Assembly: GCA_934162685.1 (NCBI GenBank)
Contig: CAKPJO010000001.1
Span: 96,602 to 138,726 of the forward strand
Reading direction: 5' to 3'
Source: an uncultured Bacilli bacterium
GTDB taxonomy: Bacteria; Bacillota_I; Bacilli_A; RFN20; CAG-826
DNA: 42,125 bases
Shown here one piece after another: positions 23,239 to 33,202 of this stretch. Positions within the stretch are counted from its first letter, which is position 1. Each line of letters begins with the position of its first letter. Both the position numbers and the translations under genes were made by a program. The notes under the pieces are model-generated. The model did not search any database, had not been told where the DNA came from, and saw only the letters and a program-made list of their open reading frames with translations.

Positions 23239-24258
23239 ATGGGTAAACGTAGTACTATATATAATGATAACTTAACTCAAGATTGGGATAACGTTTCTGA
23301 CAAGAATAAAAAACTTGTGAAAGAATTTATGCAATATTGTAAGAGCACTGATAAAAGTCCTATGACAATGAACCAATATGAACAATGGTTAAGAGTATTT
23401 TTTTGTTGGAATTATAAGGAAAACGGAGATAAGTTCTTTATTGATTTAAAGAAAAGAGATTTTGTTTATTATTTTGGTTATTTACGTGATTTAGGAATGA
23501 GTTCAAATAGAATTGCTTCTTTAAAATCGGCATTAAGTAGTTTATCTTCAGAAATAGAATTATTATGTGAAGATTTGTATCCAAACTTTAGAAATCAATT
23601 AAGAGGTTTAGAACCAGTTCATATTACGGCAGTAAGAGAAAAAACTGTAGTAAGTGGTGATAAATTAGAAGAAATGCTTAGCACTTTAGTAGAGAAAAAA
23701 GAATATCAATTAGCTTGTTATTTAGCTTTGGTATGTTCATCAGGAAGTAGAAAAGCAGAAATGTTACAAATGAAACCAGAATTCTTTGTTCCTGAAAATG
23801 TTCAATTTGAAGGATATATGTATTGTACTCCTAAAATTAGAGCAAAAGGAAGAGGAAAACAAGGGAAGATGATTAATAAATACGTCATTAAAGATGCTTT
23901 TGATCCATATTTTGAGTTATGGATGAAAGAAAGAGAAAAATTCGGCATCAAGTGTGATTCTTTATTTGTAACTAATGTAAATGGAGAATGGAAAAACGCA
24001 AATGTCTCCACAGCAAATCACTTTGCAAAACAAATATCAACAATGTTTAATATTGACTGGTATTCACACTCGGGCAGACATTACTTCTGTACATTATTAA
24101 AAAGTTTAGGATTATCAGACGATATTGTGAGAATAGTATTCTCTTGGGCAAGTGTTGATTTAGTGAGAGTTTATGATGATACTCCAGTATCAGATAAATT
24201 ATTTGAACATATGGTTGCTTTAGGTAAAAAAGCACAAAAAGATAGTGAAGAGAGGTAA
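23239..24258 (+). CDS. tyrosine recombinase / phage integrase family protein
   Basis: N-terminal SAM-like core-binding region. The catalytic pattern reads SSGSRKAEMLQM (Arg), HSGRHYFCT (HxxR), and W..VDLVRVY (Tyr). Confidence 0.7.
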   Translation: MGKRSTIYNDNLTQDWDNVSDKNKKLVKEFMQYCKSTDKSPMTMNQYEQWLRVFFCWNYKENGDKFFIDLKKRDFVYYFGYLRDLGMSSNRIASLKSALSSLSSEIELLCEDLYPNFRNQLRGLEPVHITAVREKTVVSGDKLEEMLSTLVEKKEYQLACYLALVCSSGSRKAEMLQMKPEFFVPENVQFEGYMYCTPKIRAKGRGKQGKMINKYVIKDAFDPYFELWMKEREKFGIKCDSLFVTNVNGEWKNANVSTANHFAKQISTMFNIDWYSHSGRHYFCTLLKSLGLSDDIVRIVFSWASVDLVRVYDDTPVSDKLFEHMVALGKKAQKDSEER

Positions 24259-24936: not shown

Positions 24937-25293
24937 ATGAGAGAATTACACGCAGATGTAGAAATTTGCAAGGATTATATTTTAATTAAAGATTCTTACA
25001 AAATTACAGATTCAGCTGATATGTATAGAGTATTAAGACATATTATGAATAATCCAGCTTATGATGAATTTGGTTATAAGCGCAAAATGAGTAACTATAT
25101 AGCAGAATGGAAAGTTCATAACTGGTGTTATAAATTAGGAATTCAAAGAGCTAGAACAGCAGATGTTAATTTAGATAGAGAATTTTCTAATTCAAAACTT
25201 CAAAAAATTGTTTATGATATTTTAGATGGATTTTGGAACTTTTATGATGAAATGTTAGCACAAGATCCAAAATATAATAAAAACAGAAAATAG
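24937..25293 (+). CDS. hypothetical protein
   Basis: 118 aa with a GAGGAGG RBS. Confidence 0.55.
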   Translation: MRELHADVEICKDYILIKDSYKITDSADMYRVLRHIMNNPAYDEFGYKRKMSNYIAEWKVHNWCYKLGIQRARTADVNLDREFSNSKLQKIVYDILDGFWNFYDEMLAQDPKYNKNRK

Positions 25294-25295
25294 TC

Positions 25296-25323
25296 TTGAC
25301 ATTTTTTTATATTTAGTTATACT
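25296..25323 (+). promoter_or_regulatory. sigma70/sigmaA-type consensus promoter (TTGACA-16 nt-TATACT) driving the RNA cassette
   Basis: TTGACA at 25296-25301 and TATACT at 25318-25323. The architecture matches the promoters at 4000 and 39961. Confidence 0.6.
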
Positions 25324-25329
25324 AAAATT

Positions 25330-26134
25330 GTAAATGATATTGATCCCACAACGCCTCTGACTTTCAAGCGCAACCCAGTGGGACTTTTATGGGCTTACTA
25401 GTTGTATTATCCGTACGGTAATGTCAGTGGAATTCTGACAAAGCTCTAATGTGGATTAGACGGGGCCACTATAAAGATATCCGTTGAGTAAGCTATTTTT
25501 AAGGATAGCAGGCGCACGACGATAGCGAGAGATATCGTAAGGTAGCAGGTCGAGTGTCGACACTGTTAGATTGCAAGTGAGTTGGCAAGTACAACAACAT
25601 GATTGAACGTGTTGTTAAGACACCTAGGTATGAAAGTAACTTGGTGTCTTGTAAAAATACATATGGCTATAGTATTTTAAAGTTTGTTGAGAAATACAAA
25701 TAGTTTTATTGATTAATGACCGCGGATCATAATCGATTGAAGCCATTTTTTCGGAAAGCAATGAATCGTTCAAGAAACTATTATCAAAGATTGTAGTTAT
25801 GTTCCTCTTGTCTTTCTATTTGGTTGTCCTCTGTGAGGGGACACGTGGTTATTGACTACCTAAAGTCAGTTGTAAAAGCATATTTCATTGGGAGATATGC
25901 AGAATTATTATTTAGTTTCTCAACGACGAATTTAATTATATCTTGCAAAATTAATTAAAAGAGTCCAAGATAAGGTTGAGGCTTTGCTAAAAATACAGTC
26001 TTGATAAAGTGGAGCTGGATGCATAAAATAGATAGATAAAAAGGTAACCAGAGCTATCAAAAACGGACAAAGAGAAACTTATTCGTTACGGTTTAGACAT
26101 TTCCCAGCGATATACGTAAAAAAATGTCTAGCAT
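25330..26134 (+). ncRNA. large (~800 nt) structured non-coding RNA, candidate GOLLD/ROOL-class giant phage RNA
   Basis: No ORF of 60 aa or more on either strand across 25294-26240 in an otherwise gap-free genome, and the region looks GC-richer than its flanks. Many perfect local helices are present, for example TCCCAC/GTGGGA (25344-49/25378-83), GTCAG/CTGAC, ACGATA/TATCGT, GTCGA/TCGAC, AAGACACC/GGTGTCTT, GCATAT/ATATGC, the nested pair CTCAAC...TATCTTG/CAAGATA...GTTGAG, and TAGACATTT/AAATGTCTA (26093-101/26122-30). A promoter lies upstream and a tRNA abuts the 3' end. Confidence 0.55.
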
Positions 26135-26209
26135 AGGGATGTAGCCAAATGGTAAGGCAACAGACTTTGACTCTGTCACGTGTTGGTTCGAACCCAGCCA
26201 TCCCTGCCA
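26135..26209 (+). tRNA. tRNA-Gln (anticodon UUG) with encoded CCA
   Basis: Hand-folded cloverleaf. Acceptor AGGGATG/CATCCCT, D arm GCC..GGC, anticodon stem ACAGA/TCTGT with loop CTTTGAC (anticodon TTG at 26167-69). T arm GTTGG-TTCGAAC-CCAGC, discriminator G, CCA at 26207-09. Confidence 0.85.
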
Positions 26210-26240
26210 AATTTAACAAATAAGAAAGGAAAGTGATATT

Positions 26241-26675
26241 ATGAAATCAAAAGAATTTAAGAGATTTTTGAAAGCAGAAAAGAAATATAAAAAAGCACTT
26301 ATTAAGTACATTAAGAAAGAGGAAAGTTCTTATGATTCTTATCAATTTCCTGCTATAATAATGATGATGCTTAAAAGAAGATTAGAGTACTATACACAAG
26401 GTGATAATGTGTGGCAATCAGAAGATAGTCAAAAATTAGTGATTAAATCACTAGAAAAAGCCGTATCATTAGGTGAATATGCTCTCGATGATTATAATTT
26501 TTATTATGAGGATGAAAAAGAATTCTTCAATAGAATGGATTATGAACCATTAGATTTTAAAGATTATCCTCATCATACAATAGAAGAAAAATATGAGATG
26601 TTTGAAAAAGAAAGAACAGCTTACAAGCAATGGTTTGCATACATTGCAGAACATTTTGATGAATGGTGGGATTAA
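26241..26675 (+). CDS. hypothetical protein, last gene of the RNA cassette
   Basis: 144 aa with an RBS (AAGGAAAG). No terminator separates it from the tRNA, and a strong terminator follows it. Confidence 0.55.
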   Translation: MKSKEFKRFLKAEKKYKKALIKYIKKEESSYDSYQFPAIIMMMLKRRLEYYTQGDNVWQSEDSQKLVIKSLEKAVSLGEYALDDYNFYYEDEKEFFNRMDYEPLDFKDYPHHTIEEKYEMFEKERTAYKQWFAYIAEHFDEWWD

Positions 26676-26707
26676 TAATCTTATCGTTCTGAACTATTAT
26701 ATATAGT

Positions 26708-26735
26708 AAGGTTGCTTTTATAGCAACCTTTTTTT
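26708..26735 (+). terminator. rho-independent terminator
   Basis: AAGGTTGC ttttata GCAACCTT followed by TTTTT. Confidence 0.75.
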
Positions 26736-26805
26736 ATGTTTAAAAAAACAATTAAATTAATAATAAAATGTCCCTTTTATTTCTTAGGGAGAAGGAGGAG
26801 TCTTT

Positions 26806-32505: not shown

Positions 32506-33202
32506 TAGAAATAGTTTTGTTATGAACTATTCTATGGGCGGGTTATATAGTAATATATAATATAAACCCTTTGTGATATGCTGGAAGTCCCTTAGAGCTT
32601 TTCTCGCTAACTGAATCCGTGAGGATGAGTCAGAAGTGAAGTAGAAAAGATTGGGTAATCAGCAGGCAGTTTAACTTTTTATAAAAATATATTGTGTATA
32701 ATTGAATAATAGATTATACTAGTATATAAGAAGTTTACGCCTCGACGGTCATCCAGGCATGGAGTAGGTGCAAGTGTACCGAAGCGCAAAGTCCCTATAT
32801 AATAAAATGTTTATTTTATATAGGCGAAAGATATGACCTACGCTTATGAGAAATCATAAGAGATAACGTAACGAGTTATCGCAATATAACGGACAGCTAT
32901 TGCTGGTAAAAAAGTCTTGTGCCAGAACATATAGTGATATATGGCCTCAGCTGAAAAAGAGGTAGAAGAAAACCATATCGGTGAAGGTCCTACAAAGGAT
33001 AATACCGAGGAAAGATTAAAATTGTTATAATTTTAAAATCCGTAGAGACTAAACGTTTTCTATCTTGAAAAAGATAAAGTTATAGTCCAATCTATACATA
33101 TAAATAAAAGTATAGAGTTAAAGAGAAATCTTTAACCGCCATTTATTATAAAATGGTAAAAAAGTCCTCTTTCACGTAGAGGATGAAAAGTAATACAAAT
33201 TG
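32506..33202 (+). ncRNA. group I self-splicing intron, ORF-less (697 nt)
   Basis: The 5' exon ends in U (32505). Exon UCGCU (32501-05) can pair with GGCGG (32537-41) as P1 with a U.G at the splice site, and there is a P1 extension hairpin at 32507-16/32525-33. The core has AGACUAAA (33046-53), a GAAA-capped P8-like hairpin (33061-76) and UAUAGUCC (33081-88), the same arrangement as the Tetrahymena P7/P8/P7' core. P9-like hairpins lie at 33092-115 and 33120-33 (GAAA loop). The only G that permits an open in-frame junction is 33202. Confidence 0.7.

Follow-up and report, generated by a model that had tools for sequence, protein, structure and literature searches.

A large structured RNA probably encoded ahead of the tRNA array of a tailed phage from the gut

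The subject of this report is an interval devoid of long open reading frames (ORFs) in a 42,125-nucleotide (nt) stretch of DNA from an uncultured Bacilli bacterium (contig CAKPJO010000001.1, positions 96,602 to 138,726), hereafter referred to as the window. Together with a tRNA-Gln gene, an ORF of 144 amino acids (aa) and a terminator, the interval constitutes a cassette located upstream of a phage tape measure gene. The explanation that we favor, and consider reasonably likely, is that the product of the interval is a large structured non-coding RNA, not described before, from a Bacillota-type tailed phage of the gut, namely a stable RNA in the manner of GOLLD and ROOL that derives from the precursor of a tRNA array. 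On the basis of its context and layout, the RNA probably represents a new class of the GOLLD/ROOL kind.

With 947 nt, versus 691 nt for the next in size, the gap between positions 25294 and 26240 is the largest that separates long ORFs on the plus strand of the window. It is bordered by the stop codon of a 118-aa ORF at 25293 and by the start of the 144-aa ORF at 26241, and its ORFs on both strands are all shorter than 60 aa (the longest, 49 aa). The best promoter-like site of the region, TTGACA and TATACT separated by 16 nt, agrees at 11 of 12 positions and is found at the same place in all ten variants described below, with TTGACA or TTGACT followed by TATACT, TATAAT or TAAAAT. The transcript is predicted to start near position 25330. 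Between 25300 and 25750 the G+C content is 0.38-0.41 versus 0.26-0.30 in the flanks. There is no convincing terminator between the RNA and the tRNA(s) or the 144-aa ORF, and the only good intrinsic terminator, with its stem at 26708-26730, lies 3′ of that ORF. In L013, L025 and L028, the relatives in which the sequence was read by eye past the end of the unit, a GC-stem hairpin and a T-run likewise follow the last tRNA or ORF. An earlier sequence-only reading of the window had described the ORF-free gap as the largest, the promoter, the enrichment in G+C and a single unit composed of RNA, tRNA, ORF and terminator, and in all of these respects it was correct. Its placement of the cassette, with tail genes on one side and the tape measure gene on the other, is roughly right: the latter gene is downstream, and upstream are a holin-like gene, genes of unassigned character and that of a tyrosine recombinase. 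In relatives, a YomU-like tail tube gene is situated farther upstream of the cassette. A possible internal promoter in the 3′ part of the RNA (TTGATA-17-TAAAAT, 26001-26029) was dropped from consideration, its -35 element being lost in L025 and L028.

Relatives of the cassette were reached by way of the neighboring proteins in the ENA and Logan assemblies, supplemented by one pattern scan of metagenomes. Ten distinct variants are at hand, that of the window and those of the loci designated L001, L005, L010, L015, L022, L023, L025/26, L028/29 and L013/14. Their sample names, rather than the result of any tool, suggest human gut cohorts as the sources. Most of the variants are 85-99% identical to one another. 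Three pattern scans of IMG/VR for the RNA gave nothing or chance matches only, one such scan of the GTDB genomes gave no match, and protein-based searches for the locus in these two collections returned nothing. A BLAST comparison of the RNA with 50,697 GenBank phage records yielded tRNA matches only, and a megablast search with the 12 kb surrounding it found no match among the GenBank phages. BLAST found no match among 72,556 plasmids, nor any with the L013 version of the RNA as the query. The RNA family is rare. The large terminase subunit is only distantly related, at under 31% identity, to its counterparts in siphophages of Bacillus, Clostridium and Thomasclavelia.

Alignments of the variants divide the RNA into modules: a 5′ domain, followed by a central region, a linker of variable make-up and a 3′ block (Table 1). 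Overall the RNA measures ∼805 nt in the window, and among the relatives it ranges over 615-805 nt. The size of ∼800 nt given in the sequence-only reading therefore holds for the window, but the RNA is an assembly of modules, and in one variant these are separated by tRNAs. In that variant, L013, the genes for tRNA-Gln, Met, Asp and Glu sit between the 5′ domain and the 3′ block, and a tRNA-Thr gene follows the block. Ahead of the 5′ domain lies a hairpin that is exchanged for another, shorter one in L005 and L010 (GCTAGAG...CTCTAGT) and for a longer, unrelated sequence in L013 and L025. A covariance model of the 5′ domain, R1, finds the ten variants at 230-326 bits. Within this domain a three-way junction is closed by the helix GGGCTT/AAGCTC (25391-25396 with 25441-25446), and a hairpin with the palindromic tip CCGTACGG (25411-25418) forms one of its arms. 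The central region begins with a small hairpin, after which the helix ATGGCT/AGCCAT (25663-25668 with 25741-25746) encloses two hairpins, GTTTGT/ACAAAT and a long irregular one with the palindromic tip CCGCGG (25720-25725). The enclosing helix displays wobble-compatible changes only (in L015), and the first of the two enclosed hairpins reads GTTTGC/GCAAAT in L023.

The linker carries inserts common only to the window and L023, including a hairpin, GTCCTC-TGTG-GAGGGGAC, at 25825-25843. This hairpin (TGTCCTCTGTGAGGGGACA) resembles a terminator, albeit a weak one with a poor T-tail, and could bring about partial termination in the window variant. Another hairpin of the linker is conserved with compensatory changes, CTGATT/AATCAG being replaced by CTGGTT/AACCAG and by TTGACT/AGTCAG, the last of which is the window form. 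The 3′ block, the closing helix of which may also be written AGUUUCUC/GAGAAACU, has a mean column identity of 93% over the ten variants. Between the window and L013 the identity is 94% in the 3′ block and 70% in the 5′ domain; among all variants it is 85-99% and 69-99%, respectively, a difference of which mosaic recombination could account for part. In each of the ten variants a tRNA starts 3-55 nt after the 3′ block (tRNA-Thr in L013). The hairpin that intervenes in the window is present also in L015 and L022, occurs in a compensated version (GGCAGTTT/AAACTGCT) in L013, is replaced by a different hairpin in L023, and is absent from L001, L005, L010, L025 and L028. Its 3′ arm, at 26122-26130, ends 4 nt before the tRNA, in keeping with the 9-base pair (bp) helix that the sequence-only reading had seen abutting tRNA-Gln(UUG). 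In total, about three multi-stem junctions are supported or proposed, namely the H1 junction and those formed by ATGGCT/AGCCAT and by the closing helix of the 3′ block. A candidate pseudoknot, CGGG/TCCG, shows a single one-sided change, and ten sequences are too few for tertiary pairs. Two helices considered within the 3′ block were dropped: CAAGA/TCTTG, which is broken without compensation in L013 and L025, and the alternative GGTTGA/TAACC, in which the changes are one-sided only.

That these segments fold as RNA is indicated by several comparisons. The folding z-score is -3.07 for the plus strand and -1.81 for the minus strand (20 shuffles each), in line with the many helices that had been noticed by inspection of the window. 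A ten-helix model of the 5′ domain was written from the variants' own sequences. When the variants are aligned to the covariance model, 97.9% of the cells in this domain pair, and two-sided changes affect 16 of 62 pairs versus 3.6 ± 1.6 after shuffling (0 of 500 shuffles), a count that refers to an alignment fitted to the model and to variants related to one another. In a plain MAFFT alignment the corresponding values are 12 of 66 pairs versus 2.4 ± 1.4 in shuffles. If, in the alignment fitted to the model, the pairing partners are slid by one to three columns, just 1-4 pairs change on both sides. The both-side changes are distributed over seven of the ten helices, and in the central and linker hairpins compensatory changes are observed in 7 of 42 pairs. 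Within the paired columns there are 30 G.U cells versus 4 A.C cells, which points to a plus-strand RNA rather than a structure in the DNA or a minus-strand RNA. The variants as aligned thus show a structured plus-strand RNA with hairpins kept by compensatory changes, and on this point they support the sequence-only reading.

The interval does not have the character of a protein-coding region. Over the 805 nt, 13-25 stops occur in each of the six frames. Substitutions are spread evenly over the three codon phases (30/25/24 in the comparison with L013, for example) with no three-base periodicity, and the short ORFs of the region lose their start codons in relatives such that no ORF is conserved. 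A minus-strand ORF of 42 aa over the 3′ block (25932-26060) was discarded, its start codon not being conserved. Protein coding had been named at the outset as one of the findings that would speak against the RNA; neither a conserved frame nor a codon-like pattern of substitution was found in the interval.

Table 1. Features of the cassette, in window coordinates.
Feature	Position	Strand	Remarks
Sigma-70-type promoter, TTGACA (25296-25301), 16-nt spacer, TATACT (25318-25323)	25296-25323	+	11 of 12 positions
Variable 5′ hairpin (TCCCAC ... GTGGGA)	25344-25383	+	Stem swap among variants
Conserved 5′ domain, ten helices	25386-25652	+	Present in 10 of 10 variants
Central region	25653-25746	+	Present in nine variants; unrelated G+C-rich insert there in L013
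Variable linker	25747-25913	+	Length and content differ among variants
3′ block, closing helix AGTTTCTC/GAGAAACT (25914-25921 with 26072-26079)	25914-26079	+	Nearly invariant
Hairpin before tRNA, TAGACATTT/AAATGTCTA, 9 bp (26094-26102 with 26122-26130)	26085-26134	+	Optional
tRNA-Gln(UUG), first and only tRNA of window array	26135-26209	+	ARAGORN; Rfam tRNA model 65.3 bits (cut-off 29)
144-aa ORF, all-helical small protein ending in WWD	26241-26675	+	Homologs P0001-P0007
Intrinsic terminator, 9-bp stem and T-run	26708-26737	+	Only good intrinsic terminator, 3′ of 144-aa ORF

The sequence-only reading had offered two possibilities for the RNA, membership in GOLLD or ROOL and a new analogue of them, and had proposed a covariance-model search to distinguish them. 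That search was conducted with Rfam 15, which comprises 4227 families, including GOLLD, ROOL, OLE, raiA, HEARO, RNase P and introns. At the gathering thresholds the tRNA was the sole match in the whole window. When the threshold was relaxed to E ≤ 10 for positions 25200-26800, no family besides tRNA emerged, the weak matches being taken as chance; these were abiF RNA at the variable 5′ hairpin (20.1 bits, E = 1.7) and snoRNAs and rliB (E > 1). Only tRNA was matched in the relatives L013, L005, L001 and L010 (E ≤ 1) and in the cassette of L025 (E ≤ 10). The Intron_gpI model had no match in 25200-26800 at E ≤ 10, and the RNA interval interrupts no gene. Neither GOLLD nor ROOL was matched in the window or the variants, and the RNA is therefore not filed under either family. 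The claim of membership is thus not supported, and that of a new analogue is supported by context and layout.

Both GOLLD and ROOL are located in phages beside tRNA islands (PMC12286853, PMC5737381). GOLLD contains a variable linker, sometimes with tRNAs, and its 3′ part is conserved and its 5′ part less so (PMC12286853, PMC5737381). ROOL, with a length of ∼581 nt, has six multi-stem junctions and three pseudoknots (PMC5737381). It has been observed by cryo-electron microscopy as an octameric cage, its discoverers noted a possible co-transcription with tRNAs, and its internal linker lacks conservation (PMC12286853, PMC5737381). The RNA described here resembles GOLLD in its position among phage or prophage genes beside tRNAs, in its size (several hundred to ∼800 nt in both), in a variable linker that sometimes holds tRNAs (here in L013), and in loop palindromes that covary into other palindromes. 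The better conservation of the 3′ part than of the 5′ part may be a further likeness, although mosaic recombination could explain some of it. It differs in that the Rfam model does not match it, the helices and conserved sequences being unrelated as far as the tools can tell, and in that its conserved 3′ block, only ∼165 nt in length, is much shorter than the 3′ region of GOLLD. GOLLD is an RNA-only 14-mer cage; the present RNA, so far known from one group of gut-metagenome phages only, is a putative multimer at most. With ROOL it shares an occurrence in phages or prophages of low-G+C bacteria, often beside tRNAs, a similar size range (∼600 nt for ROOL) and an internal linker without conservation; it is unlike ROOL in having no Rfam match, and the junctions so far supported or proposed number about three, as opposed to the six junctions and three pseudoknots of ROOL.

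It could be argued that the RNA is a GOLLD or ROOL so divergent that the Rfam models no longer recognize it, given that it lies in a phage directly beside tRNAs and has a similar size, a variable linker and a conserved 3′ part. We regard this as improbable. Neither model matches the window, L013, L001, L005, L010 or L025, even though the permissive mode was sensitive enough to pick up, in another part of the window, a group I intron scoring 33.4 bits, less than the cut-off of 50 bits. The fold, moreover, consists for the most part of successive hairpins, with about three junctions and no pseudoknot demonstrated. A more serious contender, though still an unlikely one, is that the tRNA/ORF operon begins with a long leader acting in cis, which carries signals for processing, stability or attenuation and has no independent function as a stable RNA. 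Such a leader would explain the transcription unit shared with the tRNAs, in which no convincing terminator intervenes, the constant location of the 3′ block just upstream of a tRNA, and the pre-tRNA hairpin of some variants. At 615-805 nt and with more than 15 conserved hairpins, however, the RNA is far beyond the known bacterial tRNA leaders. It has no terminator/antiterminator pair adjoining the tRNA, its structure is maintained at 70% sequence identity, and both of its halves are kept in L013 despite the four tRNAs in the middle.

The two remaining explanations dispense with a functional RNA altogether. According to the first, which is very improbable, the interval is a DNA-level element such as a replication origin, a packaging site or a site for the neighboring tyrosine recombinase, the gene for which lies 1 kb upstream in window-type phages; the several perfect palindromes would be in accord with this. 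The 30 G.U cells would be mismatches in DNA or on the other strand, as opposed to 4 A.C cells, and a conserved promoter reads into the element. Moreover, L013, L025 and L028 keep the element, and no recombinase gene was called in the 0.6-4 kb recovered upstream of it; a reading as an attP or recombinase site was rejected on the basis of the strand-specific G.U pairs and of these contexts. There is also no repeat or iteron pattern in the alignments, which were viewed without a dedicated repeat search. According to the other explanation, for which we see little likelihood, the interval is decaying, functionless sequence made up of remnants of tRNAs, introns or homing endonucleases, with the likeness among variants reflecting recent common ancestry. 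The locus is indeed a hotspot of gain and loss, in which tRNAs come and go, a GIY-YIG gene is present in L001 and a truncated tRNA-like remnant in L005, and most variants are 85-99% identical. Decay would not be expected to leave helices held by compensatory changes at 70% identity, a conserved promoter, or hairpins swapped for other hairpins at the same positions, and no tRNA or intron model matches the RNA itself.

If the interval does encode a stable RNA released from a tRNA-array precursor, its production may be envisaged as follows. The RNA would be transcribed as the 5′ part of the precursor, and a cut by RNase P at the first tRNA, that is at the 5′ end of tRNA-Gln (26135), would release it and set its 3′ end. 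In MALAT1/mascRNA, the 3′ end of the RNA is made by an RNase P cut at a downstream tRNA-like structure. The two cases are alike in that a structured RNA directly precedes the tRNA fold that would set its 3′ end; unlike mascRNA, the fold here is a real, probably functional tRNA within an array, and its processing is presumed. In L013, the processing of the tRNAs would split the RNA into two separate pieces. Once released, the RNA would accumulate as a stable species with a role tied to the tRNA supply of the phage, as suspected for GOLLD and ROOL. More speculatively, the variable linker might be the counterpart of the disordered, sometimes tRNA-bearing linker of GOLLD.

The most speculative element of this scheme is that symmetric homo-oligomers might form by way of the palindromic hairpin tips. 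Tip 1 occurs as CC-GUAC-GG, UC-GUAC-GG and ACU-GUAC-AGU, with A-CUAG-U at the aligned place in L025 and L013. Tip 2 occurs as C-CGCG-G, U-CGCG-A and U-CAUG-A, and tip 3 as CCUU-UGCA-AAGG and CCUU-CGCG-AAGG. Within a single chain, neighboring bases of such a loop are unable to pair. Switches of exactly this type, from GGCC to GAUC or AGCU, served Kretsch et al. as evidence that molecules of OLE and of GOLLD touch one another symmetrically, the palindrome argument being applied to loop L9.3 of OLE and loop L21a of GOLLD (PMC12286853). The tips are similar to those of OLE RNA and of the HIV-1 dimerization initiation site in that self-complementary hairpin tips of 4-8 nt would serve for symmetric contacts. 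They are unlike them in that complete closure of the stems would leave loops of only 4 nt here, a tight fit for a kissing contact, in that one tip is non-palindromic in the window, and in that dimerization is in this case only a supposition. It is tentatively suggested, and with considerable doubt, that the RNA belongs to a third independent class of giant tRNA-island phage RNAs, a protein-free symmetric multimer with two or three of the tips as two-fold contacts and a 3′ end cut by RNase P.

A number of points weigh against the interpretation of the interval as a presumably stable, possibly multimeric RNA. There are ten distinct variants only, all from one narrow, recombining group of phages. 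The structure of the 5′ domain is tested on the sequences from which it was derived, and most of the covariation stems from three or four variants (L013, L023, L025 and L028). In the 3′ block the covariation is not significant, with 65 of 500 shuffles reaching the observed value; a single compensatory pair is found in this highly conserved block, in its closing helix (G-C to U-A in L013, with G.U in L015 and L022). The high identity of the block may itself result in part from recent recombination. No conserved complementary 6-mer connects the 5′ domain with the 3′ block, and therefore these are possibly separate RNAs or modules. With respect to the tips, the argument from palindromes is post hoc. 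In the window and L023, tip 3 is the non-palindromic UGUG. The GUAC tip cannot be aligned unambiguously to L013 and L025, and L013 can form another hairpin there. Palindromes of at least 8 nt are not enriched in the region (4 versus 2.8 expected, P = 0.31); an equal number or more occur in 17% of window stretches of this size, and a general enrichment was accordingly dropped as an argument. In addition, perfect DNA palindromes can arise by template-switch mutation without selection on an RNA.

To our knowledge, GOLLD and ROOL are among the largest bacterial or phage RNAs without a known function, the one consistent clue being their association with phage tRNA islands. Were an unrelated RNA to share their setting and architecture, from the promoter and the large modular fold to the variable linker able to hold tRNAs and the tRNAs directly behind, that association would be a recurring solution rather than an accident of two families. 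If multimers were indeed formed, it would follow that unrelated phage lineages repeatedly evolved RNA-only assemblies tied to the supply of phage tRNAs. The cassette also offers a compact test system with a defined promoter, a 3′ end probably defined by RNase P, and loop palindromes that can be mutated and then restored, and nature has provided variants for such tests in the two-piece RNA of L013 and the cassette-less locus L031.

The cassette is found in two genome contexts. In context A, that of the window and its close relatives, the order is a tyrosine recombinase gene, a 219-aa gene, the 118-aa gene, the cassette and the tape measure gene. In context B, represented by L013, L025 and L028, the order is a 323-aa gene, an optional homolog of the 118-aa gene (119 aa), the cassette and a 99-aa gene; the 323-aa and 99-aa flanking genes have no counterpart in the window. 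Locus L031 contains an empty site (474-670), in which 195 nt separate the 118-aa homolog and a terminator from the 99-aa gene; the RNA, the tRNA and the 144-aa ORF are all absent, and the RNA models score ≤6 bits. In its tRNA-Gln, L013 shares 98.7% identity with L001 and 88% with the window, whereas in the 3′ block it agrees with the window at 94%. The identities of the segments are thus incongruent, and recombination is therefore frequent. As these arrangements show, the cassette is an accessory, mosaic module, present in both contexts and lacking in one relative. The 118-aa gene (24937-25293) travels with the cassette in both contexts (L025, L028) and is present also at the empty site of L031; it may mark the insertion point rather than be part of the cassette. 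The tyrosine recombinase gene of the window (Phage_integrase family, 23239-24258) occupies an unusual position within the structural/lysis block, between the holin-like and tape measure genes.

The 144-aa protein had been put forward as a possible dedicated partner of the RNA, a proposal that is weakened by its distribution. A homolog does follow the RNA in nine of the ten variants and in both genome contexts, but L028/L029 have the RNA and six tRNAs without it, and a 42%-identical homolog is located among DNA-metabolism genes with neither RNA nor tRNA. At E ≤ 0.001 the family comprises 86 representative clusters (P0014-P0097 included), and is far broader than the RNA as found. The protein is a frequent passenger or neighbor, neither an obligate nor a demonstrated partner. 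An AlphaFold2 model of it has a mean predicted local distance difference test (pLDDT) score of 81. A Foldseek search with this model against the PDB and BFVD gave no significant match, and neither the protein nor 30 members of its family had a match in Pfam, PHROGs, NCBIfam or PADLOC.

A tRNA-Gln follows the RNA in every variant, in arrays of one to six tRNAs. Glutamine is encoded in the window by 468 CAA and 27 CAG codons. The array consists of Gln alone in the window, L001 and L022, of Gln-His in L005, L010, L015, L023 and L025, of Gln-Met-Asp-Glu-(CUA)-His in L028, and of Gln-Ser-Ser-Met-Asp-His in L024, and a further tRNA sometimes follows the 144-aa homolog. Between the tRNA-Gln and tRNA-His genes of L005 (4829-4889) and L010 (810-870) is a 61-nt tRNA-like element that scores 42.9 and 36.8 bits, respectively, with the Rfam tRNA model and is not called by ARAGORN; it looks like a tRNA-Ser-type gene without an anticodon arm. 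In L001 (4236-4961) and also in L002, a GIY-YIG homing-endonuclease gene of 241 aa, which is not in the window, is inserted between the tRNA-Gln gene and the 144-aa ORF.

Some of the relatives appear to use a recoded stop codon, with suppressor tRNAs. The 118-aa homolog of L028 has an in-frame TGA at the position of a TGG (Trp) codon in the window, and does not translate to the query. The phages in question have a 96-nt tRNA with the anticodon UCA, and their array behind the RNA includes a tRNA with the anticodon CUA. The loci concerned are L028 (2007-2102, 2245-2613 and 3609-3683), L029, L030 (3855-3950) and L013 (2407-2503). In the window itself, none of the 33 long ORFs ends in TGA (23 end in TAA and 10 in TAG). 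Arrays that include suppressor tRNAs provide a new angle on the role of such RNAs during infection.

Finally, the tape measure gene of the window is split by ∼690 ORF-free bases (32506-33193) into ORFs of 1900 and 1256 aa, whereas in L001 the product is a single chain of 3393 aa. The Rfam group I intron model matches this segment at 32522-32860 (33.4 bits, below the cut-off; E = 1.4e-6) and more weakly at 32902-33113. The segment is probably a self-splicing intron within the tape measure gene.

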